64,000 nucleotides of DNA, from the NCBI GenBank assembly GCA_944331895.1, contig CALVIX010000002.1, positions 97,099-161,098 on the forward strand, in the 5' to 3' direction. A model generated the notes under the pieces. That model was given only the letters and a program-made list of their open reading frames with translations. It did not search any database and was not told the origin of the DNA. Source of the DNA: an uncultured Bacilli bacterium. GTDB taxonomy: Bacteria; Bacillota_I; Bacilli_A; RF39; UBA660. A program made the translations under genes and the position numbers. Shown here piece after piece: positions 39,725-49,914 of the stretch. Each line of letters begins with the position of its first letter. The stretch's first letter is position 1.

Positions 39725-40507
39725 TTATCCCTCCCATATACTTGTTTGTAAAATACAATCTACTCCATCTAGATGAATCTTATCTTCTAGAAGCCCCACC
39801 AATATCTTTCTTTTTTTGAGAATTCCATCCACTGTAACAGAAGTAATAGGAATACATTCTAACATCGCATGATGATTTGCTGTATCATAGGGAATGTAGA
39901 TTTTCTTTCCCTCCGTATCCTCAATCTTATCCTTTTCCACCAATATGACAGGGCGATGAAAGTATGGATCTTTCAAATGATTTCCCGTATCGACAAAGCC
40001 ATTCCAAGCATATGTCTTCCCGCGATAGCGAAACTGGACTAGATGAATTTGATCGTATAGTTCTTCTCTCTTTTTACCTTGTTTTACATAAGTATATAAA
40101 ATAATAGGCGAAAATATGAATAAAAAGATCATGTTGATGGAAAAGCTACGATGATAAAAAACAAGACCTTCTTGTTGATAAGAAAATTGAACATTTAAAA
40201 AGTATAAAAAGCCACCCATCACAATACTAACCATGTAAAGATATGCGAACTCTCTTACAAACTGTTTCAAATTATGATACCCAAACGTCGCAAGCAACAT
40301 TCCAATGCTGATCATTACTTTTAATAAAAATAATGTAAATGAAGATAACGTTAAAAAGAGAAAGAAGATACTAGTGGCACCAACCATCGAGCCCAAAAAA
40401 AGTCTCTTATAAGACGCTCTTCGATGCAGAATCGTAGATGTCGTAAGCAAGATTAAAAAATCAAAGATTACGTTTAGCAAGAACACTAGATCGACGTATA
40501 CTTTCAT
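39725..40507 (-). CDS. spoIIGA: Pro-SigE processing aspartic protease SpoIIGA
   Basis: VY.D..FL.N..FD, multi-TM, catalytic FVDTGN.L.DP. Confidence 0.95.
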   Translation of the reverse strand: MKVYVDLVFLLNVIFDFLILLTTSTILHRRASYKRLFLGSMVGATSIFFLFLTLSSFTLFLLKVMISIGMLLATFGYHNLKQFVREFAYLYMVSIVMGGFLYFLNVQFSYQQEGLVFYHRSFSINMIFLFIFSPIILYTYVKQGKKREELYDQIHLVQFRYRGKTYAWNGFVDTGNHLKDPYFHRPVILVEKDKIEDTEGKKIYIPYDTANHHAMLECIPITSVTVDGILKKRKILVGLLEDKIHLDGVDCILQTSIWEG

Positions 40508-40524
40508 GTTTTCACCTCATTTTA

Positions 40525-40558
40525 AGTATAAAAAAAGAACACAGTGATTTGTGTCGCT
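40525..40558 (-). promoter_or_regulatory. spoIIG promoter: TATACT -10 with a Spo0A-box-like TGTCGCT
   Basis: No consensus -35; one 0A-like heptamer (consensus TGNCGAA). Confidence 0.45.
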
Positions 40559-40684
40559 TTTTTTGAAATTTTTAATGAAATTATTTCAGCTTCTTCTACA
40601 AACTTTAACTTTATATAGACGATAAATGATGATCGCAACTCAACTATATGGTTGAATTTTCTAGCAAATGTCATCTCATAAAGT

Positions 40685-41064
40685 TTAAATGTAATTGTAA
40701 ATGTGTTTTCGTATTCTATGCTTCTTCAATAGTTTTTTTGTTTCATTATTATCACTTGATTGGGCACTTTTATATTTTAAATTATCCATTACCACTTTTA
40801 ATAAATTGTTAATATTTTGAGTTGTTTGATCAGTATTTAAATCAACCACTCCCAATTTCAATGTTTTCGTTGACATTGATACTGCTGGTGGCAGTGTTAG
40901 TAATGATTAATGGCTTCTTTTTCTAAGGTTATTGCATACCCCTTTTCAGGCTTAATTTTAAAATGCAAATAAGATTCAGAAAGTTCATTTATTAATAATT
41001 CAATCCAATCGTTATTATAAAAACTTAAATGATTAAAATTAAACGCTTTCATTTCTAAACAAAA
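40685..41064 (-). pseudogene. Short broken ORF fragments at the island border
   Basis: Two roughly 60-aa minus-strand ORFs in different frames, no clear RBS or recognisable family. Confidence 0.3.
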
Positions 41065-41067
41065 GTA

Positions 41068-41153
41068 GGGATATGTCAAAAAAGTGTGTCAGTTTTTGAA
41101 ACAAGAATTTTTAAATCCAAACTCTCAACTTACACACTTTATTTTACACTCCC
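41068..41153. mobile_element. 86-bp mini-element with IS256-family-like terminal inverted repeats
   Basis: GGGATATGTCAAAAAAGTGTGTCAGTT versus reverse complement GGGAGTGTAAAATAAAGTGTGTAAGTT; inner 14 bp match 13/14. Confidence 0.55.
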
Positions 41154-41226
41154 ACAATTGTTTAATATATTTAGTTATGAATTACAAATAGAGTGATCAT
41201 TTCAATATAAAAGAGCTATAATGAAA

Positions 41227-41766
41227 TTAAAAATTTTCACGATAACTCTTTTTTCGTTTTTTCACATCATATCTGATTATAGACACAACATTGGATACCA
41301 CTATGCAAAGATTAGTAAATAAATTAGCATAGGCATTAAACACTATATAATATGGTATCCATAATAATAAGCTGCTTAAATTTATTAATCTAATTCTATT
41401 TTCGTTAATTTGTATAATCGTGATTGTATGCAAAATTGCACTAATTAACGGAATTATATCAATCCATGACTTAAATGTGATTATTGATGCAATGATAGAT
41501 AAAGCAATATAAAATGTAATTAATTCCCACGTAATTTTCTTATTTTTTACTGCGTATATATAATTAATTAATGTTTGAATTCCAAACACAAATTGTATTA
41601 ATGCTCCAGCATATGCTTTTAAAAGCAACAATCCTGTCGCACCCACAATATTTCCTAACAAGAAAAATAGAAGTATATTTTTTCTTGTCTTACATTGCAT
41701 ACTAATTACATTCAATCCACAAGCAACTAACGCCAATATTTGTGCTAATATAAATATCAAACTCAT
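41227..41766 (-). CDS. YgjV-family inner membrane protein (possible small transporter)
   Basis: Six or so TM; Q.K.RK..L, LL..AY.G, Q..E...R.I.L....LW..Y.....AY motifs. Confidence 0.8.
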   Translation of the reverse strand: MSLIFILAQILALVACGLNVISMQCKTRKNILLFFLLGNIVGATGLLLLKAYAGALIQFVFGIQTLINYIYAVKNKKITWELITFYIALSIIASIITFKSWIDIIPLISAILHTITIIQINENRIRLINLSSLLLWIPYYIVFNAYANLFTNLCIVVSNVVSIIRYDVKKRKKSYRENF

Positions 41767-41796
41767 TTGATTCTCCTAATTATTAAGCACTAATAA

Positions 41797-42246
41797 CTAA
41801 TCTAGTTTATATCCTAATTGTTTAAGTGCTAATATTGTAATTGAAGATAAATCCGATTTTTTTAATTGATGTATATCATAGAACTCTGCACCTAATGAAT
41901 CGTCATTATTCTCTGTTACTTCGATTTCCTTTTTTATCTCATTATTATATTCTTCTATTTTATAGAAAAAGCAAATATGATGAATCTGTTGAGGTTCTCC
42001 GTGGTGTACCCATTCTATTATCGTAGAATTACCATCAAAAAGAGAACACTTTTTCACATCTATCCCCACTTCTTCTTTCATTTCTCTTAATAATGTTTGT
42101 TCTGGTGTTTCTCCAAACTCAATTGTGCCTCCAGGTAAATCTAATTTACCTTTATACGGCCCATTGGCTTTCTTTATTAAAACGACTTTATTGTTTTTTA
42201 TTATAACCCCGTATGAACCCAAATGACTTATTTTTTCCATATTCAT
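41797..42246 (-). CDS. Nudix hydrolase
   Basis: Nudix box GGTIEFGETPEQTLLREMKEEVG. Confidence 0.93.
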   Translation of the reverse strand: MNMEKISHLGSYGVIIKNNKVVLIKKANGPYKGKLDLPGGTIEFGETPEQTLLREMKEEVGIDVKKCSLFDGNSTIIEWVHHGEPQQIHHICFFYKIEEYNNEIKKEIEVTENNDDSLGAEFYDIHQLKKSDLSSITILALKQLGYKLD

Positions 42247-42256
42247 TCCTCCTAGT

Positions 42257-43402
42257 CTATTTCTTTTTCAATTTTAACACATAATCATCTAATTTAGCAA
42301 CATCCTTGTTAGCTCTTTCCCACTCAAAATTTTGTTCTTTAGATCTACAGTAATCACAAAATGGAATTGAATTATTTAACTGTTCTATTGCTTCCCATCC
42401 ATTAGTTATTTCTGATAATACAATGAAGTCGTCATCACTAATTATAAAATAAGTATTAAATAAATCATTTAAATTATCAATTAATAATGGATAGTAACAT
42501 TTAGAAATTTTACCATTTCTCAAAAACCTACAAAATCTTCCTCCACAATTCTGACTCACTTGAGCACCTTCATTATTTTTTTCTGTTGATAATCTTGTAT
42601 GAAATTGTGTTATAACTTCTGGTTTCTTAAAGTAATCATCATTTATAAAATATTTTATATTTTCTTTATTTAATCTTTCAAGTATTTTTGGAAGTAATTT
42701 TTCTGTTAGCTTGTATAATGAAATTGAAATAATTACATTATTGTCACGTAATGAATCAATCATTTCTTGATTAATTTTTGGTATTAATACTCCGTTTGTT
42801 ACAAGAACCAGTTCTGTTTTTGGCAACATTGCTCGTGCCACTTTTACAATTTCATCGAGTTTTGGATGAATAAGTGGTTCTCCTCCAAGTAATCTAAAAC
42901 ATAACAAGTGAAAATAATTGTTTATTATATATAAATCTTTGGCTAAATCTTCTGGTGTAACAAAATATGGTTTGCAAATATTTGAAAAATGCGCACAACC
43001 TTTACAATTTAGATTACAATTATCAACTATGTTTGTTTCCAAATAGTTTAAAATTGCTTTGTCACTAAAATCAACTGGTAACAGATAATTCTTCAAATCT
43101 TCGATGTCTCTTATGCTGTTAAAAAATATTTCTTCTTTAATCAAAAAGGCATTTCGAAAATTTTTATTTTTTAGATATTCAATAGCACTACCCATAAACA
43201 TTGGCTTTTTTGCCACAATAATATTAAAATCTGAATTAGTAAAATCTAAATTATCTATATTAATAACAGGTTTATTATTATAAACATCTGTAGGTAAATT
43301 TGTTTTATTGTTAACAAATGCATCTATATTAATATTGTATGATTCTAATTTTTTAGCTACCTCACTAGCAAATTTACCTGTTCCAAAAATTACATTTCTC
43401 AT
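42257..43402 (-). CDS. Radical SAM protein with N-terminal Rossmann-like domain and C-terminal Cys cluster
   Basis: CNLNCKGC, GGEPLIHP, TNG; N-terminal IFGTGKFA; C-terminal C....C...NG.ISKC and CDYC. Confidence 0.9.
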   Translation of the reverse strand: MRNVIFGTGKFASEVAKKLESYNINIDAFVNNKTNLPTDVYNNKPVINIDNLDFTNSDFNIIVAKKPMFMGSAIEYLKNKNFRNAFLIKEEIFFNSIRDIEDLKNYLLPVDFSDKAILNYLETNIVDNCNLNCKGCAHFSNICKPYFVTPEDLAKDLYIINNYFHLLCFRLLGGEPLIHPKLDEIVKVARAMLPKTELVLVTNGVLIPKINQEMIDSLRDNNVIISISLYKLTEKLLPKILERLNKENIKYFINDDYFKKPEVITQFHTRLSTEKNNEGAQVSQNCGGRFCRFLRNGKISKCYYPLLIDNLNDLFNTYFIISDDDFIVLSEITNGWEAIEQLNNSIPFCDYCRSKEQNFEWERANKDVAKLDDYVLKLKKK

Positions 43403-43418
43403 TTATACCTTTCTCCTT

Positions 43419-44420
43419 TTATTTTTTTACTAATTCTTTTCGTTTTTTCAATCTACCTATTTCTCTATAGAACTTCTTATACAACCATTCATACTCATCC
43501 AAATACTCATTTGATACTTTGTATTCTTTTTCTATGATCATCTTCATTAAAGTCCATACTCTATATATAATTGTTCTAGTCAGTTCTGATTCTGTTAGTG
43601 AAGGTTTACCATAACCTTTCAAAAACGAAGAACTTATTTCTGAGTGTATAGAATGAAAATAGAATGTCATTAGTTCATCACAGTAATATAAATCAGAAAA
43701 ATCAACAATTCCACTTATATTATTGTCTTTTATTATAAAGTTACCTTCCCAAGCATCCACATTTGTTAAACTGATTTCATTAACTTGGTTTAAATCATTT
43801 TTGAATGATGAAATGAGTTGAAGTAGTTTTTTGTAATCTATACCATTTATTTTGATATTCTTTTCATTTGCATTATTAACAAGAATATTGAATAAGGTGT
43901 ATACAAAATCGTAATTATTATCAAATTCAGTTTCAGGCAAACATGGTAAGAAAAATTTATTACCCTTAATCGAACATATTTGTGAACAAATCTTTCCTAT
44001 TTTTTCTTCTATTCTTGACACAACTTCTGGTTGCATACTTTTTTTCAAATTTTGGAACTGCTCTCCCTCAATATAAGTCATAAAGAAATATGGCGTTTTA
44101 TTAATTGTTCCTGAATCATCATATAATAAAAGTTTAGGTGATGGTATATTTAAGCATTCCATTAACTTTAACATTTCTACTTCCCAAGAAATATTATTAT
44201 TTTCAAAAGTTAACATTGTTTCATTATATGTTGGTGCAATTTTTAAAACAATTATTTCGTAGTCAGTTTTTATTAAATATAATATATTTTTCATCCCTAC
44301 GTATAATTCCTCAATTGCAAAATCAACTGTAGCATCACCCAAATAATTTCTTACAATGTTTTCAATCTGAAATTTACTTGGATAGCACAAATTATTATCA
44401 TACAATTTATTTTTGTACAC
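43419..44420 (-). CDS. Aminoglycoside-phosphotransferase (APH/choline kinase) fold kinase
   Basis: G.KN..Y, VLKIAP, YFFMTYIEG, catalytic-loop VDAWEGNF, IVDFSD. Confidence 0.82.
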   Translation of the reverse strand: MYKNKLYDNNLCYPSKFQIENIVRNYLGDATVDFAIEELYVGMKNILYLIKTDYEIIVLKIAPTYNETMLTFENNNISWEVEMLKLMECLNIPSPKLLLYDDSGTINKTPYFFMTYIEGEQFQNLKKSMQPEVVSRIEEKIGKICSQICSIKGNKFFLPCLPETEFDNNYDFVYTLFNILVNNANEKNIKINGIDYKKLLQLISSFKNDLNQVNEISLTNVDAWEGNFIIKDNNISGIVDFSDLYYCDELMTFYFHSIHSEISSSFLKGYGKPSLTESELTRTIIYRVWTLMKMIIEKEYKVSNEYLDEYEWLYKKFYREIGRLKKRKELVKK

Positions 44421-46440
44421 GTTTATTTAAACTCCCTTTAGAATATTGATGTCCCTTTTGTACGTATTTCTTGCATACTTGATCAGTGAATTCATATTCA
44501 TCCATGTCAACAGTCAAATGGAACACATTGTCAAATGCATATTCATCAATCTTGTTCATAAAGTATCCTCTAATCCAATCTTTAATTTCTGCTATTTCTT
44601 TATACATATATCCTTTTTTCTTACTATAATGTACAAAATTAGAAACGTCTATGTTCATTTTTAAGATTGCAATAGTATTAGAATCATATCTATCTATTAA
44701 TACATTCGCTTTAAAAACAGTAACACCGATTTTTTCATTATTATATAAATAGATTTCATTTATAAATGGACGATATTCTGAACCTAGATCCACAAAAGTT
44801 AAATCTTCAATTGTAGCTCTTGTTGATAACATTTGAATGGCCTCAGTCATCAAATCACCCTCTAATGAATTCCATAATATGCCTATACAAGGGAGTTCCA
44901 TTCTTGGTAATTTTTCTTGCATTATTATATTATCATTTAATAATTGTTCAATTATTCCTAACACATTATCTAGATCTTTAAATTTGCTAACATCATCAGC
45001 TTCAAATAAAACTTTTATTATTTTATTTACTAGATTTTGCATTTCATCAAAATAATAATTATCTAATATACCAGACTTATAATCTCTCATATAAGTTTTT
45101 AATACATGTGCTAAACTATTGAATAAAAATTTTTCAGCTTCATCTTTGTACTCATCACCCAGAGCCATAATTCTATTGTAAGATTCTTGACCCCATTCCT
45201 CTGTTGTAAAAAATCTACTATCAAATTTTCTTCCTGTCAATGATGTTCCTCTTCTTTTTATATAATGATAATATTGTTCAGAATCACAAACAAAACTATT
45301 AGAATTTAAACACACCTCTAACATAAATCCTGCATCTTCATTAAACAAATGTTCATCAAATCTAATTTCGTCAATCGCTTCTCTTTTAAATAATTTATCC
45401 CATACTGCAGTAGTAATCATTCCATTTAAATGCGAACCCAATATATCTTTACGAGTTACTGGGGTAGTTACAATTCTATCTTCATCAGAAAGATTTACAA
45501 TTCTACCATCTCTTGAATGCACAAATGCATGACCACAAGAAATATCCGCAGAATAATTTAAAGAATTTTTTAGCAAACTAGAATACATATTATTACTAAT
45601 ATAATCGTCGGCATCTACAAAACCTACATAATCACCTGTTGCAACACTTAAACCTGTATTTCTAGCATTAGACAAACCACCATTAGGTTGATTAACAACT
45701 TTAATTCTGTTATCTTTTTTTGCTAATTCTTCACATACAATTTGCGAATCATCTGTAGAGCCATCGTTAACTAATATTATTTCCAAATTCTGATAACTTT
45801 GTTTTTGAATACTACCAACACTTCTATTTAAAAATTGTTCAGCATTATATACTGGAACTATTACAGAAATTTTATTTTTTCCAAATGCATTTAGGTTTAT
45901 AAAATTCGTAATCTCCTCTTGCCATACGTGATTAGTATCTAATATTTTATGATATTCGCCCTTTAAGTTATCGTCAAAAACATTGTCTATATTACAAAAT
46001 TTGTTCATATTGATAGAACCATTTCTTTCAATATACCTTTTTTTTCGCAAATCATAGTCTGCTTCTGTTTTTATAAGAATATTACACTTTTTAAATAGTG
46101 CTGATTGTTCTAAAAAAAGCCAATCAATAATTACATTTTGCTGTGGATTTTTATTTATCTCAGTTAAAATGATGTTATCTATTTCTCTTTTAAAGTTAGT
46201 ATCCATAAGATATGCTTCAATTGAATTTTTAAAAAAAGATTCAACAATATCTATATCTTGATTTACATTTACGCCAAAATTATCACTTAAATACTGACTA
46301 ATTTTACTCAATTTGCCTTCCTTAATATAAGATTCAACTATTTTGTCTACCTCTATATGTTTAAAGCCATACTTATTACTCAAAAATTTTGATACTTCTG
46401 TTTTCCCTGAGCCAGCTAGTCCCGTTATTCCCATTATCAT
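44407..46440 (-). CDS. Three-domain fusion: CoaE-like P-loop kinase + GT2 glycosyltransferase + putative NDK-like domain
   Basis: GITGLAGSGKT and IIDW..L (CoaE-like); ISVIVPVYN, VNDGSTD, NGGLSNARN, FVDADD (GT2); IR.....DNVFH near the C-terminus. Confidence 0.8.
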   Translation of the reverse strand: MIMGITGLAGSGKTEVSKFLSNKYGFKHIEVDKIVESYIKEGKLSKISQYLSDNFGVNVNQDIDIVESFFKNSIEAYLMDTNFKREIDNIILTEINKNPQQNVIIDWLFLEQSALFKKCNILIKTEADYDLRKKRYIERNGSINMNKFCNIDNVFDDNLKGEYHKILDTNHVWQEEITNFINLNAFGKNKISVIVPVYNAEQFLNRSVGSIQKQSYQNLEIILVNDGSTDDSQIVCEELAKKDNRIKVVNQPNGGLSNARNTGLSVATGDYVGFVDADDYISNNMYSSLLKNSLNYSADISCGHAFVHSRDGRIVNLSDEDRIVTTPVTRKDILGSHLNGMITTAVWDKLFKREAIDEIRFDEHLFNEDAGFMLEVCLNSNSFVCDSEQYYHYIKRRGTSLTGRKFDSRFFTTEEWGQESYNRIMALGDEYKDEAEKFLFNSLAHVLKTYMRDYKSGILDNYYFDEMQNLVNKIIKVLFEADDVSKFKDLDNVLGIIEQLLNDNIIMQEKLPRMELPCIGILWNSLEGDLMTEAIQMLSTRATIEDLTFVDLGSEYRPFINEIYLYNNEKIGVTVFKANVLIDRYDSNTIAILKMNIDVSNFVHYSKKKGYMYKEIAEIKDWIRGYFMNKIDEYAFDNVFHLTVDMDEYEFTDQVCKKYVQKGHQYSKGSLNKRVQK

Positions 46441-46628
46441 TAAATCACCTCTCCAAATCTTTACTTTTTACACAATAATGTTATAGATATTTATTACTAG
46501 ATTGCTACCACTTTAATTTCTCGCTATACTATCACTATTGGAAAAAAATGTCAATAACATGTTGTTAAATCGTTATAAACACTTTAGGAAAAGATGAGGA
46601 AATGATATAATAATAAACGGTGGTTTAT

Positions 46629-48701
46629 ATGAGTCAAATGGAATTTGAAAAATTAAAACTTAAAGACATTTTAGAAAAATATGAGGAATATATCAATGAT
46701 ACAAAATTAGAACTCAAAAACATATACAAACTTTATAATCAAGACGAGGCAAAAGAAAGAGAACATAATTTAAAAAATAGACTTTACTCGTTAGAAGTAA
46801 ATGTTGACAAGCCTTACTTTGCTAGAATTGACTTTGATAATGAAAATGGGCTAAAGGATATATGTTATATTGGAAAAGTTGGAGTATCTAATTATGATAA
46901 TGAGATAATTGTTGTTGATTGGCGTGCTCCTATTTCTTCTTTATATTATGATTCTGCAATAGGAAAAACTTCATATAAAGTCAATGATGACATCATAAAC
47001 GGAAATTTAAAACTTAAAAGACAATATAATATTGAAAACAAACAATTAATTGATTTCTTTGATGTTGATACAGTTAGTAATGATGACCTGTTAAAGCCAT
47101 ATTTGAGCGTTAATGCCGATGCTAGAACAAAAAATATTGTTGCAACAATTCAAGAAGAGCAAAATGATATAATTAGAAGTGAGTTTTCTAAAAATTTGAT
47201 TATTCAGGGAGTTGCTGGATCAGGTAAAACAACTGTAGCTTTACACCGAATAGCTTACTTGGCTTACAACTACCGTAATCTCATTCATAATGATCAATAT
47301 ATGGTTATCGGTCCAAACAAATTTTTTGTTAATTATATATCTGATATGTTACCAGAGTTAGATGTTAATGATGTAGCACAATATGATTTGGTGGAACTAG
47401 CTGAAACTTTTATAAATCAAAAATTAAATCTACAAAACGAAAATGAGATAATAAAAAAATATTTAAATGGATATAAAAATGAACTTCCGAAAATCAAGAC
47501 CGATTTAGAATATAAAAATATAATTGATGCATACTTTAAAGATTATTTTACTAATAATATTAATTATAAACCGATTACAATTTATGATTTCGTTGTAATT
47601 GATCCAACCACTATAGAACAATACTGGGAAGAAGTCTTAAAGCGTGATTATGATGACTTAAAAAGTGCAATAAATAGATTAATAAACCTGTTATCAAAAT
47701 TTTGTGAAAACAATAAAGAAACTATTTTATCTAAAATAAACAAACATATTGATCTAAAAATCGAAAACGGATCTGATTTATTAGAATGTAGAAAAATGAG
47801 AACTAACATGATAAACAAGTTTCAATCTAATATTAACTCAATAATTAAAAACCACTTTAAACTAATGTTTAAAAAAAGTACAGTTATCTATGATGACATA
47901 AAAAACAACATGAATAAATATACTGACAATAAAATATTATTACAAAATATCGACAACATCTTAAAATATGAAGATCTACCAGCATTGATTTATATTGAAT
48001 ATAAGATTAATGGATATAAAAATTTTGATAAGTATAGACATATAGTTATTGATGAAGCACAAGACTATAATACTTTTTCATTTATAGCTCTTCAAAAAAT
48101 TTTTCCAAAAGCCAGTTTTAGCATATATGGAGATATAGCACAATCTATATATGCATATAGAAGTTTAGATAATTGGGAAAGTATAAAAAACAACGTTTTT
48201 AAAACAATAGATATAAAATATTTAAATAAAAGTTATAGAACAACTATCGAAATAATGAATGAAGCAAATAAAATTAATAAATATTTAAATCTTCCGGAAG
48301 CCTCTGCAGTAATTAGACATGGTAATGAAGTTACTTATAAAAAAGTTTTAAAAACAGAAGAATTTATACCTTTAATAAATGAACTAATGGCAGATGGTAA
48401 AAAAAATATTGCAATCATATCAAAAGATGCAGAAACATCTAACACCTTATATTTAAAATTAAAAAACAATATTAATCTTACTAACATTAGTGATAGATCT
48501 GTGGAAAATATCAATGGTATTTGTACTATTTCTTGTCATTTGTGTAAAGGATTGGAATTTGATGCAGTTATTATTAATAATGTAAATAATTTTGATATTA
48601 ATAATACTTTAGATATGAAATTATTATATGTCGCTATGACAAGAGCACTACACAGTTTAGTTATTACTTATAATGATAGTATTCCTAGAATATTACAATA
48701 A
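46629..48701 (+). CDS. helD: HelD-family RNA polymerase recycling motor (SF1 helicase-like ATPase)
   Basis: KPYFARIDF, YIGK, VDWRAPISSLYY, IVATIQ.EQN.IIR, GVAGSGKT, DEAQD, GDIAQ, KGLEFD, YVAMTRALH. Confidence 0.9.
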   Translation: MSQMEFEKLKLKDILEKYEEYINDTKLELKNIYKLYNQDEAKEREHNLKNRLYSLEVNVDKPYFARIDFDNENGLKDICYIGKVGVSNYDNEIIVVDWRAPISSLYYDSAIGKTSYKVNDDIINGNLKLKRQYNIENKQLIDFFDVDTVSNDDLLKPYLSVNADARTKNIVATIQEEQNDIIRSEFSKNLIIQGVAGSGKTTVALHRIAYLAYNYRNLIHNDQYMVIGPNKFFVNYISDMLPELDVNDVAQYDLVELAETFINQKLNLQNENEIIKKYLNGYKNELPKIKTDLEYKNIIDAYFKDYFTNNINYKPITIYDFVVIDPTTIEQYWEEVLKRDYDDLKSAINRLINLLSKFCENNKETILSKINKHIDLKIENGSDLLECRKMRTNMINKFQSNINSIIKNHFKLMFKKSTVIYDDIKNNMNKYTDNKILLQNIDNILKYEDLPALIYIEYKINGYKNFDKYRHIVIDEAQDYNTFSFIALQKIFPKASFSIYGDIAQSIYAYRSLDNWESIKNNVFKTIDIKYLNKSYRTTIEIMNEANKINKYLNLPEASAVIRHGNEVTYKKVLKTEEFIPLINELMADGKKNIAIISKDAETSNTLYLKLKNNINLTNISDRSVENINGICTISCHLCKGLEFDAVIINNVNNFDINNTLDMKLLYVAMTRALHSLVITYNDSIPRILQ

Positions 48702-48810
48702 TATTAATGAGGATGTTTATATTTTAAATTCATTTGTAAAAACTCATTCTACTTTTCAATACCAAAAATTTTATGATAATATTAAACGATGTGTTTATTA
48801 TATTTAGTAA

Positions 48811-48837
48811 GGAGCACAATTATCTTATTGTGCCCTC
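48811..48837 (+). terminator. Hairpin downstream of helD
   Basis: GAGCACAAT/ATTGTGCCCTC imperfect stem, weak U-run. Confidence 0.45.
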
Positions 48838-48954
48838 AAAGTTTAACTCATTTCCACTTCAGTTTTAATATCTTCATATACTGTCACTTTCAATATTTTG
48901 TTTCTTTGTCAAATAGTATTGGCGAGTAAAAATCACTAATGCTATTTTTTATAT

Positions 48955-48979
48955 GAAAAAGACACGTTTGTGTCTTTTC
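48955..48979 (-). terminator. Intrinsic terminator after Nudix
   Basis: GAAAAAGACAC/GTGTCTTTTC. Confidence 0.8.
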
Positions 48980-48981
48980 AG

Positions 48982-49416
48982 TTATTTTAATTGTTCCAAT
49001 TTCTTTTGAAAACTTTGAAATAATTCTATCTTGTCTTCCTTATAAACAATAGTCTCTCCATGATTTTTTATCATGTCGATTACGTCGTTGATAGAACACC
49101 ATTTTACTTGAGAGAGTTCCTCTTCCTGAAGTATAAAATCTGCTTCATTTTTATTGCATCGAACATAAAAATAATACGTTGCATGTGTTTCCGAATTCTC
49201 GATTGTCGTAAAAGGATGGAGTTCACTCAGCTCTACTTCGATTCCAAGTTCTTCCTTACATTCTCTTACTGCAGCAACTTCCACAGTCTCTCCTGCTTCT
49301 ACATGACCATGAAGTAATGCCCATCGATTAGGATAACTTCTTTTGTTCGCACTTCTTTTCTGTATTAGTATGTCATGTTGATCATTGTATATCAATACAC
49401 CAATTTCTTTTTTCAT
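48982..49416 (-). CDS. Nudix hydrolase (IDI-like subfamily)
   Basis: ILIQKRS..K.SYP..W, GHVEAGETVEVAAVRECKEELG. Confidence 0.92.
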   Translation of the reverse strand: MKKEIGVLIYNDQHDILIQKRSANKRSYPNRWALLHGHVEAGETVEVAAVRECKEELGIEVELSELHPFTTIENSETHATYYFYVRCNKNEADFILQEEELSQVKWCSINDVIDMIKNHGETIVYKEDKIELFQSFQKKLEQLK

Positions 49417-49425
49417 ATAATCCCC

Positions 49426-49878
49426 CTATAACTTGATCTGATACAATCTTTCTTCATTTTTTAAAACTTCCATGAATGTAGCACCAAATTTTTCATAGTA
49501 GTTTTCTAAATCACTCTTCAAATAAACACTATGATATCCTCTTCTTTTTGCTTCTTCTAGAATTGCCTGATGGAGTTTTTTAGAATACCCACGTCCTCTA
49601 TATTCTTCCTTGACATACATCGTTGCATACCACGGTGTCAAATCTCTTCTCTCATCGCCATCGTAATGAAATAGAGAGATGAAACCGATCAATGTATGAT
49701 CTTCAATATATCCTAATGCGACGATCAATTGGTCGTTCTCATTCGTTTGAATACGTTTTACTTTGTTTTGAATCTTTTGTTCTAATTTCAAAGGATCTTT
49801 TTCCGTACTCCATTCTTTCGCACATAATGTGCAGTATTCTTCTAGCCAAGCTGGATATTCTTTCAAATCGACAATCAT
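49426..49878 (-). CDS. GNAT family N-acetyltransferase
   Basis: PWYATMYVKEEYRGRGYS..L, YYEKFG. Confidence 0.92.
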   Translation of the reverse strand: MIVDLKEYPAWLEEYCTLCAKEWSTEKDPLKLEQKIQNKVKRIQTNENDQLIVALGYIEDHTLIGFISLFHYDGDERRDLTPWYATMYVKEEYRGRGYSKKLHQAILEEAKRRGYHSVYLKSDLENYYEKFGATFMEVLKNEERLYQIKL

Positions 49879-49889
49879 AAATTCCTCCT

Positions 49890-49914
49890 AAAAAAAGATA
49901 GCGCTTGCTATCTT
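49890..49914 (-). terminator. Terminator after ftsZ
   Basis: AAGATAGC/GCTATCTT plus U7. Confidence 0.8.

Follow-up and report, generated by a model that had tools for sequence, protein, structure and literature searches.

A horizontally acquired, AT-rich island in the genome of an uncultured Bacilli bacterium of the chicken gut carries one member of a conserved, mobile enzyme cassette that recurs in other uncultured gut Bacilli, repeatedly next to a gene for HelD, a motor that frees stalled RNA polymerase. The island lies within a 64,000-nt window of contig CALVIX010000002.1 (assembly GCA_944331895.1) and comprises five tightly packed minus-strand genes, encoding a YgjV-family membrane protein, a MutT-like Nudix hydrolase, a radical SAM enzyme (rSAM), an APH-fold kinase and a fusion of CoaE-like, family-2 glycosyltransferase (GT2) and predicted NDK-fold domains, which are divergent from a class-I helD. 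No described pathway was found to match this combination, and its product was not identified here. The location of the features is given in Table 1.

Table 1. Features of the island, with positions in the 64,000-nt window
Position	Strand	Feature	Size and internal landmarks
40508-41226	-	Left edge of the AT-rich island, with two small soluble ORFs of unknown function	63 aa (40685-40876) and 60 aa (40897-41079)
41227-41766	-	YgjV-family small polytopic membrane protein, the presumed transporter	179 aa
41797-42246	-	MutT-like Nudix hydrolase	149 aa; Nudix box at residue 40
42257-43402	-	Radical SAM enzyme	381 aa; Rossmann-like N-domain (about 1-110), rSAM core (CX3CX2C at 129-136), Cys-rich twitch-like C-domain
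43419-44420	-	APH-fold (protein-kinase-like) small-molecule kinase	333 aa; VDAWEGN at 221, DFS at 240
44407-46440	-	Three-domain fusion	677 aa; CoaE-like P-loop kinase (1-~170), GT-A family-2 glycosyltransferase (~188-400), helical linker, predicted NDK-fold domain (514-677 = nt 44410-44901)
46441-46619		Divergent promoter region between the operon and helD	Minus-strand TTGACA-17-TAGTAT with TG at 46554-46526; plus-strand extended -10 TGATATAAT at 46602-46610
46620-48701	+	Class-I HelD-type RNA-polymerase recycling ATPase	693 aa; true start probably the ATG at 46629; DWRAP at 100, Walker A at 197, DEAQD at 478
48982-49878	-	Second Nudix hydrolase and GNAT acetyltransferase	Nudix 48982-49416; GNAT 49426-49878

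The initial annotation had described these five genes and the divergent helD, in very AT-rich DNA between ftsZ and spoIIGA, and this observation is confirmed, with all six ORFs at the positions it gave and every domain assignment holding. Gaps between the five operon genes are 30, 10 and 16 bp, followed by a 14-bp overlap between fusion and kinase that is kept in L009, L011 and L127 (G and L numbers designate the genomes and loci used for comparison), while 179 bp separate the fusion from helD. The GC content is 0.23-0.28 across positions 40500-49000 against 0.33-0.40 in the flanks, that is, a drop from about 35% to 25%. The flanks are spoIIGA-sigE on one side and ftsZ-ftsA on the other. Two members of the family, G003 and G205, have ftsZ directly abutting spoIIGA, so that the stretch is a true insertion. 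The second Nudix and the GNAT, which the initial annotation left out, are also absent from this empty junction and are thus part of the insertion, although it is uncertain whether they belong to the system; Nudix hydrolases of this second type replace the MutT-like one in L129, L138 and G005, and a GNAT that is 53% identical lies near HelD in L138. The same uncertainty applies to the two small ORFs at the left edge, which gave no Pfam, NCBIfam or PADLOC hit and were found only in the near-identical genome G001/L014. The promoter elements listed in Table 1 are consensus matches only, and a search of this region against Rfam detected no riboswitch.

Profile searches with Pfam identified Imp-YgjV (3e-21) and NUDIX (8e-17) in the first two proteins. 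YgjV is the best conserved protein of the cassette, with 69-72% identity in L009, L015, L127 and L129, but its substrate is unknown. The best solved relative of the Nudix is E. coli MutT (8.7e-11) and its Nudix box, GTIEFGETPEQTLLREMKEEVGI, is intact and fits GX5EX7REUXEEXGU, yet it scores 55 bits against the MutT equivalog TIGR00586 (cutoff 97.9) and is therefore MutT-like but not MutT; it is 54-58% identical in other cassettes. The kinase matches APH (PF01636, 3.5e-9; 37 bits, above the 23.2 cutoff) and Fructosamin_kin (1.8e-5) and retains the catalytic Asp/Asn and DFG-like Asp, but it falls far below the resistance equivalog (APH_3p, 22.9 against 205 bits) and has no sequence relative in the PDB.

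The radical SAM enzyme (Pfam Radical_SAM, 1.3e-14) carries C129, C133 and C136 together with invariant Cys at 286, 291, 302, 349 and 352; a CX3CX2C core plus an auxiliary-cluster Cys set in a short C-terminal twitch domain is also a feature of the twitch radical SAM dehydrogenases SpeY and BtrN of aminocyclitol/aminoglycoside pathways. Its AF2 model (pLDDT 89.7) had SpeY, a sugar-hydroxyl dehydrogenase, as top Foldseek hit (E 3e-17, TM 0.68, 286 columns), followed by MoaA (6e-7) and viperin-like proteins (5e-6), and SpeY was also the best sequence hit (phmmer to 7wzv, 4.4e-11). Identity to SpeY is nonetheless only about 17%, there is an extra Rossmann-like N-domain of the PglD_N type (family members carry PglD_N or C2185-like_N hits), no aminoglycoside pathway surrounds the gene, its substrate is unknown, and oxidation of a secondary alcohol on a sugar or cyclitol was not assayed. 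Prokaryotic viperins (pVips) with neighbouring nucleotide kinases follow a similar logic, a radical SAM enzyme plus nucleotide kinases on a mobile island with a possible polymerase-directed nucleotide product, but a viperin identity was not supported, since the PADLOC pVip model matches only positions 5-106 of 257 (1.5e-11), corresponding to the generic rSAM core, and the structure is ten orders of magnitude closer to SpeY. In addition, pVips carry no GT2, Nudix, YgjV or HelD.

In the fusion, Pfam detected GT2 (PF00535, 1.6e-36, 126 bits) and CoaE (2e-7), and Walker A and DxD (DAD at about residue 276) motifs are intact. The GT2 domain is nearest to GalT1 (5hea, 5e-37), with TarS (1.5e-15), TarP (3.6e-13), PglI and TuaG also among its relatives. 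Like the wall-teichoic-acid glycosyltransferases TarS, TarP (which can be prophage-borne) and TarM, it is a soluble GT-A domain carried on a mobile element in a host that has TagF-like genes, but these are on another contig and the C-terminal trimerisation domain of TarS/TarP is lacking, a helical linker and an NDK-fold domain being found in its place. A nucleoside-diphosphate-kinase fold, suggested by the initial annotation, is supported for this C-terminus by structure prediction (pLDDT 86.6), at least the top 25 Foldseek hits in the PDB being NDKs (prob 1.0, TM up to 0.65 on target), whereas no match to the Pfam NDK model (PF00334) was obtained even at E 5 and identity is about 10%. Invariant Y, R, D-N-x-F-H-x-T (here with the His of FHLT) and E residues, in alignments of 14 and 7 sequences, resemble the Y...R...N-x-x-H-x-[ST]...E catalytic set of NDK, but the K of the IKPD motif is replaced by W-N, and because residue-by-residue equivalence to NDK His118 was not checked, these data do not settle whether the histidine is catalytic. 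Only 259 clusters among 1.84 billion proteins carry this domain, which is always fused or adjacent to kinase and GT2 partners; elsewhere it is fused to kinases and to a MobA-like nucleotidyltransferase, and in G002, L129 and L138 the domains of the fusion are separate genes.

The helD product, the only HelD-type protein encoded in the genome, has a UvrD-like SF1 core (UvrD-helicase, UvrD_C_2 and AAA_19 hits; Walker A GVAGSGKT and DEAQD) and the HelD-specific N-terminal DWR[A/S]P motif (PMC10719064), preceded by PYFARIDF. Its best PDB relative is B. subtilis HelD (6wvk, 9.4e-79), followed by M. smegmatis HelD, and the N-terminal region aligns to B. subtilis HelD residues 75-314 at 4.7e-49. It scores 393 bits in two stretches against HelD_BACSU (NF041464), just under the 419-bit cutoff, the clamp-arm region and the first ~44 residues not aligning, which is consistent with a divergent class-I paralogue. 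HelD proteins have a long N-terminal coiled coil that enters the RNA-polymerase secondary channel; here the N-terminus is helical and charged over about 55 residues, about 30 residues shorter than in B. subtilis HelD, and neither its structure nor binding to RNA polymerase was examined. Like HelR of actinomycetes, the gene is accessory and sits among modifying enzymes, but known HelD and HelR genes are not described as operon partners of a GT2/kinase/Nudix/rSAM cassette (PMC10719064).

The initial annotation had named outcomes that would count against its reading, among them absence of the gene combination elsewhere and confinement of homologs to capsule or teichoic-acid loci with wzx/wzy, and neither of these was observed. 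The cassette recurs at 33-57% identity (YgjV about 70%) in at least ten arrangements from chicken, rabbit and other gut metagenomes; no close copy lies in a capsule or teichoic-acid locus with wzx/wzy-type genes, and no flippase, polymerase or priming transferase flanks any close copy. It is mobile: it lies next to an integrase and an HTH gene in L009, splits ksgA/yabG in L011-13, and occurs in a different version at the ftsZ-spoIIGA site in G002. The same HelD orthogroup (47-49% identical over full length) lies next to it in six gene arrangements, at four different positions: divergent upstream (this window), downstream (L009/L015), upstream (L127), upstream with a different gene order (L129), after the Nudix with no rSAM or YgjV (L138), and downstream of a NeuB/CMP-sugar variant that keeps the NDK-like, rSAM and Nudix genes (G005). 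As HelD is present in only 17 of 41 genomes of this family, repeated adjacency by chance is very unlikely, although this is an estimate and not a formal test. A second HelD lineage is translationally coupled to an rSAM/SPASM enzyme, a P-loop-like protein and a HAD phosphatase in G030 and G003. However, HelD is not obligatory, since it is lacking from type c cassettes (L011-13, L022-24, L130 and G156) and from G002, L128 and L136, and it also occurs without the cassette, in G014 and in G003, where the closest HelD stands alone between miaB and cotE.

Overall, the interpretation offered in the initial annotation is partly supported: a conserved, undescribed kinase/glycosyl/radical-SAM pathway paired with HelD stands, whereas a nucleotide-like product, the Nudix as sanitiser, YgjV as transporter and HelD as self-protection are inferences. 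The recurring core consists of a GT-A glycosyltransferase, a CoaE-like P-loop kinase, the previously unmodelled NDK-fold (probably phospho-histidine) domain, a protein-kinase-like small-molecule kinase (APH-fold here, HipA/CtkA-like elsewhere) and a Nudix hydrolase, with the SpeY-like rSAM, YgjV and class-I HelD as frequent additions. In our preferred but tentative reading, these soluble enzymes would build or remodel, in the cytoplasm, a glycosylated and phosphorylated nucleoside-diphosphate- or triphosphate-linked compound, the glycosyltransferase adding a sugar, the three phosphotransfer modules setting the phosphorylation state, the rSAM oxidising a sugar hydroxyl and YgjV moving the unphosphorylated precursor or product across the membrane. 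Because the compound or its intermediates would interfere with transcription, in an invader, a competitor or the producer itself, the cassette would carry two safeguards, the Nudix cleaving the nucleotide-linked species and HelD releasing stalled RNA polymerase. The nucleotide theme is supported by the NDK fold and its His motif, the CoaE-like P-loop, the MutT-like Nudix, the fusions of the NDK-fold domain and the PglD_N-type domain of the rSAM. The analysis itself establishes gene content, folds, motifs, conservation, mobility and the linkage to HelD, while substrate class, order of steps, the link to transcription and the protective roles are deduced, no substrate or product having been tested and every chemical step being inferred from folds. 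Against this reading, the cassette of the window has no nucleotidyltransferase or base-modifying enzyme and no riboswitch or regulator that would name a ligand, and class-I HelD has no demonstrated protective role against any inhibitor (PMC10719064). Aminonucleoside antibiotic pathways with a Nudix safeguard (puromycin Pur7; the adg operon, PMC9239236) combine sugar-hydroxyl oxidation of a nucleotide with a MutT-like Nudix that protects the producer's RNA polymerase, a parallel not tested here; there is no aminotransferase in the island, the oxidising enzyme would be a radical SAM enzyme, and a GT2 and three kinases have no counterpart in those pathways.

Among the alternatives, surface-glycan decoration, already raised as the more mundane option in the initial annotation, is less likely but not dismissed. 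In this view, the GT2 (two in some versions) would add sugars to wall teichoic acid or another envelope polymer on the cytoplasmic face, as TarS, TarP and TarM do, with the rSAM and kinases tailoring or activating the sugar, possibly from a compound imported by YgjV, in the way the lic system decorates teichoic acid with an imported molecule, and HelD as unrelated cargo; such a module could alter phage adsorption or immune recognition. The GT2 relatives are indeed glycan-elongating enzymes, distant rSAM homologues (about 30% identity) with PglD_N or C2185-like_N domains lie in clusters with TagF-like, RgpF, GT4 and GT2 genes, a distant NDK-fold domain lies in a polysaccharide cluster next to a sulfotransferase in G088, G005 carries NeuB and a CMP-sugar synthetase, and the host has three TagF-like genes, an LCP ligase and ten other GT2 genes. 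Alternative versions of the cassette at one hot spot in the genus are also typical of glycan variation. This view explains neither the linkage to one HelD orthogroup nor three phosphotransfer modules plus a MutT-like Nudix, and no close cassette sits in or beside a wall-polymer locus or has an LCP partner.

Somewhat less likely still is a detoxification island against an outside RNA-polymerase-directed compound, an anaerobe's counterpart of the actinomycete rifamycin resistome (HelR, Rph, Rgt, Rox), in which HelD would protect or clear the target, the kinases, glycosyltransferase and rSAM would inactivate the compound by phosphorylation, glycosylation and anaerobic oxidation, the Nudix would destroy its activated nucleotide form and YgjV would export it. 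Phosphorylation and glycosylation are classic inactivation chemistries, some kinase homologues give chloramphenicol-phosphotransferase-like hits, the cassette is mobile and patchy like resistance genes, and target protection of the HelR type is established for class-II HelD (PMC10719064). Conversely, three different phosphotransfer modules fused or coupled to a GT2 look like a pathway rather than alternative inactivators, scores against resistance equivalogs are low, class-I HelD gave no rifampicin resistance in B. subtilis (PMC10719064) and no candidate compound is known in these gut habitats. Least likely is the absence of any functional link, operon and helD being independent accessory genes that collect in the same insertion hot spots of small, AT-rich genomes. 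The occurrence of each without the other, their divergent, not co-transcribed arrangement in the window and the different inserts at the ftsZ-spoIIGA site would fit, but HelD often lies co-directional with gaps under 100 bp (62 bp in L015, 21 bp in L138) and stays 47-49% identical while the enzymes diverge to 33-36%.

No matching system was found in PADLOC, in the HelD review (PMC10719064) or in text searches, and no Pfam model detects the predicted NDK-fold domain. A more far-reaching reading, which is possible but held with less confidence than the preferred one, is that of a previously unrecognised kind of chemical conflict system of gut Firmicutes, in which a dedicated enzyme line, often including the SpeY-like rSAM, would make a sugar-modified nucleotide that poisons transcription of phages or competitors, and in which the cassette would carry its own antidotes, a Nudix that destroys the active form and a class-I HelD that pulls poisoned RNA polymerase off DNA. 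If so, this would give class-I HelD paralogues their first dedicated physiological role.

All six ORFs lie exactly where the initial annotation had placed them, and the observation on which it was based is thus confirmed. Coordinates are listed in the table below. The five genes on the minus strand are separated by gaps of 30, 10 and 16 bp, followed by a 14-bp overlap between the fusion and the APH-fold kinase genes, and 179 bp separate them from the divergent helD. The same overlap is kept in three other loci carrying the cassette (L009, L011 and L127; here L and G designate the loci and genomes compared). In silico inspection indicates that helD more likely starts at an ATG with a GGTGG Shine-Dalgarno sequence than at the GTG of the predicted ORF, and that an extended -10 (TGATATAAT) is present in its 5' region; expression data were not examined. 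GC content falls to 0.23-0.28 across the island, against 0.33-0.40 outside, and the island is flanked by spoIIGA-sigE-(PGI)-sigG on one side and by a second Nudix, a GNAT and then ftsZ-ftsA-ftsQ-murB on the other.

Coordinates of the features described in the island and in related loci
Sequence	Positions	Strand	Feature
Window	39725-49913		ftsZ-spoIIGA junction, insertion hot spot (see also loci L131, L132, L134 and L017)
Window	40500-49000		AT-rich interval
Window	40745-40783 and 48692-48730		39-nt direct repeat
Window	41227-41766	-	YgjV
Window	41797-42246	-	Nudix (MutT-like)
Window	42257-43402	-	Radical SAM enzyme
Window	43419-44420	-	APH-fold kinase
Window	44407-46440	-	Fusion protein, 677 aa
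Window	46602-46610		Extended -10
Window	46619-46631		helD start region
Window	46619-46623		GGTGG Shine-Dalgarno
Window	46620		GTG start of helD
Window	46629		ATG, more likely start of helD
Window	46620-48701	+	HelD, 693 aa
Window	48982-49416		Second Nudix (Nudix2-type)
Window	49426-49878		GNAT
L138	6937-7392		GNAT 53% identical to that of the window
L018 (genome G015, contig C8)	8929-16224		GT2-radical SAM fusion and neighbours within a que operon
L120 (genome G030, contig C2)	8259-13525		Second HelD lineage
L117 (genome G003, contig C27)	15789-19942		Second HelD lineage
L118 (genome G005, contig C2)	2092-10711		NeuB/CMP-sugar variant with HelD
L126 (genome G088, contig C44)	9203-11797		Protein with C-terminal predicted NDK-fold domain, and sulfotransferase

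The genome is a 1.12-Mb, 83%-complete MAG whose nearest named relative, Candidatus Fimihabitans intestinipullorum from chicken gut, has the same island at 99% identity. In two genomes of the same family (G003 and G205) ftsZ directly abuts spoIIGA, a third (G450) has a different insert of 4.5 kb at this position, and the congeneric G002 holds a divergent, inverted version of the cassette despite 98-99% identical flanking genes, indicating that the stretch is an insertion at a hot spot. No integrase was found in the window, and the only repeat near both edges of the AT-rich island (39 nt, 72% identity, last 15 nt identical) is too weak in AT-rich DNA to be called an att site. Searches for carriage on deposited phages or plasmids returned only generic GT2 or radical SAM-core hits, and no Rfam match that could have pointed to a riboswitch or a ligand was found in 40400-49500.

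The Pfam and NCBIfam assignments match those of the initial annotation. The fusion protein consists of a CoaE-like P-loop kinase (Walker A GLAGSGKT), a GT-A family-2 transferase whose nearest solved relatives are GalT1, TarS and TarP, and a C-terminal region that has no Pfam hit even at E 5. Residues 400-677 were modelled from an alignment of 21 homologues (pLDDT 86.6), and the model shows a helical linker and an alpha/beta domain whose Foldseek hits are all nucleoside diphosphate kinases (prob 1.0, TM up to 0.65 normalised to the target), so that the designation of this region as NDK-like is correct at the level of fold. Across 14 and 7 diverse sequences, a Tyr, an Arg and a D-N-x-F-H-x-T...E pattern are invariant, which resembles the NDK Tyr52/Arg105/Asn115/His118/Ser120/Glu129 set, although residue equivalence was not checked structurally. 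No canonical NDK gene (PF00334) was found in this 83%-complete genome, while 12 of 14 control genomes have one, but the fused domain is far too divergent to be a housekeeping NDK.

The model of the radical SAM enzyme (pLDDT 89.7) has a Rossmann-like N-domain, the CX3CX2C core and a Cys-rich C-domain. Its best relative, both by sequence (7wzv, 4e-11) and by structure (E 3e-17, TM 0.68), is SpeY, a twitch radical SAM dehydrogenase that oxidises a sugar hydroxyl in spectinomycin biosynthesis, while MoaA, viperins, BtrN, AbmM and BlsE follow ten or more orders of magnitude behind. Family members carry PglD_N or C2185-like_N hits on the N-domain, which in PglD holds the nucleotide of a UDP-sugar. 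A prokaryotic viperin or another known defence system was therefore not retained, since PADLOC gave only generic radical SAM-core, Nudix and UvrD hits and structure places the enzyme with SpeY rather than with viperin. A RiPP cluster was also rejected because the two small downstream ORFs are soluble, are not Cys-rich and are conserved only in the near-identical genome, and because SPASM/peptide-maturase hits are weak.

Of the remaining proteins, the Nudix is MutT-like, and the kinase passes the Pfam APH threshold but is far from any resistance equivalog. Assignment of YgjV to PnuC/SWEET-superfamily nucleoside-type transporters, as suggested by its Pfam clan, was not examined and is not used as evidence, and text searches on YgjV as a transporter, as on the structure 7WZV, gave nothing useful. 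The helicase is a class-I HelD, with B. subtilis HelD as best PDB match (9e-79) followed by M. smegmatis HelD, and it has the DWRAP hallmark motif (PMC10719064). It scores 393 bits against an equivalog cutoff of 419, its N-terminal arm is about 30 residues shorter than that of B. subtilis HelD, and it is the only HelD-type gene in the genome. All catalytic motifs are intact.

The fusion and the radical SAM enzyme (rSAM) each have dozens of homologues at 40-60% identity in gut metagenome assemblies. The initial annotation had made its reading depend on whether the genes co-occur in other genomes, and tblastn synteny over the retrieved loci, together with gene tables, shows that they do, in several arrangements. 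In the window, in the near-identical genome G001 and in L021, HelD is divergent from Fusion-APH-rSAM-Nudix-YgjV. In L009/L010 (beside a phage-type integrase and an HTH gene) and L015/L016 (rabbit-gut Bacilli), the order is GT2-Fusion-APH-rSAM-Nudix-YgjV-HelD, all on one strand, while it is HelD-GT2-Fusion-APH-rSAM-Nudix-YgjV in L127 and HelD-rSAM-GT2-kinase/GT2-standalone NDK-like-YgjV-Nudix in L129. In L138, a GT2, a CoaE-like kinase, an NDK-like domain fused to a ~300-aa kinase-like domain, a Nudix and HelD follow each other with no rSAM or YgjV. In G005 (locus L118), a HAD phosphatase, an unknown protein, NeuB and a CMP-sugar cytidylyltransferase, in place of the GT2 and kinases, are followed by NDK-like, rSAM/SPASM, Nudix, an unknown 487-aa protein and HelD, all on one strand.

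Other versions lack HelD. L011-13, L022-24, L079, L130 and G156 have Fusion-APH-(rSAM, often broken or absent)-Nudix, without YgjV or HelD; in L011-13 the element splits ksgA/yabG, with a partial duplication of both genes (truncated copies upstream, full copies downstream), and the rSAM is reduced to fragments. In G002, which belongs to the same genus as the window, rSAM, NDK-like, CoaE-like kinase and GT2 occur as four separate genes at the same site, next to a 98%-identical spoIIGA. L128 has Fusion-YgjV-rSAM, and L136 has a 902-aa P-loop/GT2/NDK-like/kinase-like fusion, without HelD. A GNAT 53% identical to that of the window lies 1.5 kb from HelD in L138, and Nudix2-type hydrolases replace the MutT-like Nudix in L129, L138 and G005, suggesting that the GNAT and Nudix2 pair may belong to the wider module.

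The HelD copies of the window and its like, L009/L010 and L015/L016, L127, L129 and L138 are 47-49% identical over their full length, and that of G005 is 41-44% identical. YgjV stays at 69-72%, and in L129 the enzymes have drifted to 33-36%. HelD itself is accessory in this bacterial family, being present in 17 of 41 relatives, sometimes in multiple copies, and it also occurs alone, for example in G003 between miaB and cotE. A second HelD lineage, 55% identical between G030 (L120) and G003 (L117) and 33-35% identical to that of the window, is translationally coupled in the order rSAM/SPASM (533 aa), P-loop-like protein (208 aa, weak thymidine-kinase hit), HelD, unknown protein (177 aa) and HAD phosphatase. 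Adjacency of one HelD orthogroup to the cassette in six gene orders, at four relative positions, is estimated as very unlikely to be due to chance, although no phylogeny-corrected test was run; the link with HelD is robust but facultative.

The predicted NDK-fold domain is rare. It was found in 3 of 399 genomes sampled across the class, and a profile search of 1.84 billion representative proteins found 259 clusters at E 1e-3 or better. It occurs standing alone, at the C-terminus of P-loop/GT2 fusions, in the middle of ~900-aa proteins, at the N-terminus of ~450-aa proteins, or behind a MobA-like nucleotidyltransferase domain. The C-terminal part of the ~450-aa proteins carries an LQ[SG]DR-PNNWGI motif that is read here as a HipA/CtkA-type kinase loop. 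The constant partners of the domain are therefore a protein-kinase-like kinase, a P-loop kinase and sugar-nucleotide enzymes.

Taken together, the cassette combines sugar, nucleotide and phosphate chemistry, with one or two GT-A transferases, three phosphotransfer modules, a radical SAM enzyme that has a nucleotide-sugar-type N-domain and would oxidise a sugar hydroxyl, and a MutT-like pyrophosphohydrolase, all soluble, to which a small membrane protein is attached. The odd piece is the genetic partnership with HelD, whose only known activity is on RNA polymerase. The explanation favoured here, although tentative, is a cytoplasmic pathway to a glycosylated, phosphorylated, nucleotide-linked compound that interferes with transcription, with Nudix and HelD as safeguards; this would resemble in its logic viperin-plus-kinase systems, as well as aminonucleoside pathways in which a Nudix shields the polymerase of the producer. 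While gene content, conservation, mobility and the association with HelD are shown, the product and its effect on transcription are inferred, and no chemistry was tested. The initial interpretation of an undescribed kinase-glycosyl-radical SAM pathway paired with HelD is thus supported in part, its functional side being left at the stage of inference. PADLOC has no matching system, the HelD review describes no such neighbourhood and reports no resistance role for class-I HelD (PMC10719064), and text searches of a limited literature found nothing, so that the cassette is undescribed as far as could be found. It is a real, conserved and mobile cassette that contains a new NDK-fold domain family, and its function is unresolved.

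Decoration of a wall glycan, with HelD as a passenger, is considered unlikely but has support from more distant relatives that sit in ordinary glycan loci. An rSAM at 35% identity lies among TagF-like, RgpF, GT4 and GT2 genes, and many rSAMs at about 30% identity have GT2 neighbours. In G088, a 545-aa protein with no Pfam hit in its N-terminal ~380 residues and a C-terminal NDK-fold domain lies next to a sulfotransferase, inside a GT4-rich polysaccharide cluster. The host has three TagF-like genes, an LCP ligase and ten other GT2 genes, so a wall-polymer acceptor exists. On the other hand, confinement of the homologs to capsule or teichoic-acid loci had been set in advance as an outcome that would count against the initial interpretation, and no close cassette lies in or next to such a locus or has a flippase, polymerase or priming transferase beside it. 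Detoxification of an outside polymerase-directed compound seems somewhat less likely still, and pure coincidence the least likely of these alternatives. A queuosine or 7-deazapurine link is seen only in G015, where a GT2-rSAM fusion (579 aa), a second GT2, a NodU/CmcH-type carbamoyltransferase and a GNAT sit between queC and queD-queE-folE, downstream of two RrnaAD-type methyltransferases; this could be a 7-deazapurine tailoring pathway or an insertion into the que operon, but the link does not hold for the cassette of the window.

If the cassette proves to be a wall-glycan decoration module, it would still be an unusual one, because a kinase and an NDK-fold domain are fused to the transferase and because it uses radical SAM sugar chemistry. 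If instead the link to transcription is real, it would show that low-GC bacteria use HelD paralogues as dedicated partners of small-molecule pathways, which has been an open question since HelR was shown to protect RNA polymerase from rifamycins while class-I HelD showed no such role. It would also define a new NDK-fold phosphotransfer domain family that no Pfam model detects, and would point to an unknown nucleotide- or sugar-nucleotide-derived metabolite made by abundant but uncultured gut bacteria, which could be an antiviral or antibacterial transcription inhibitor.
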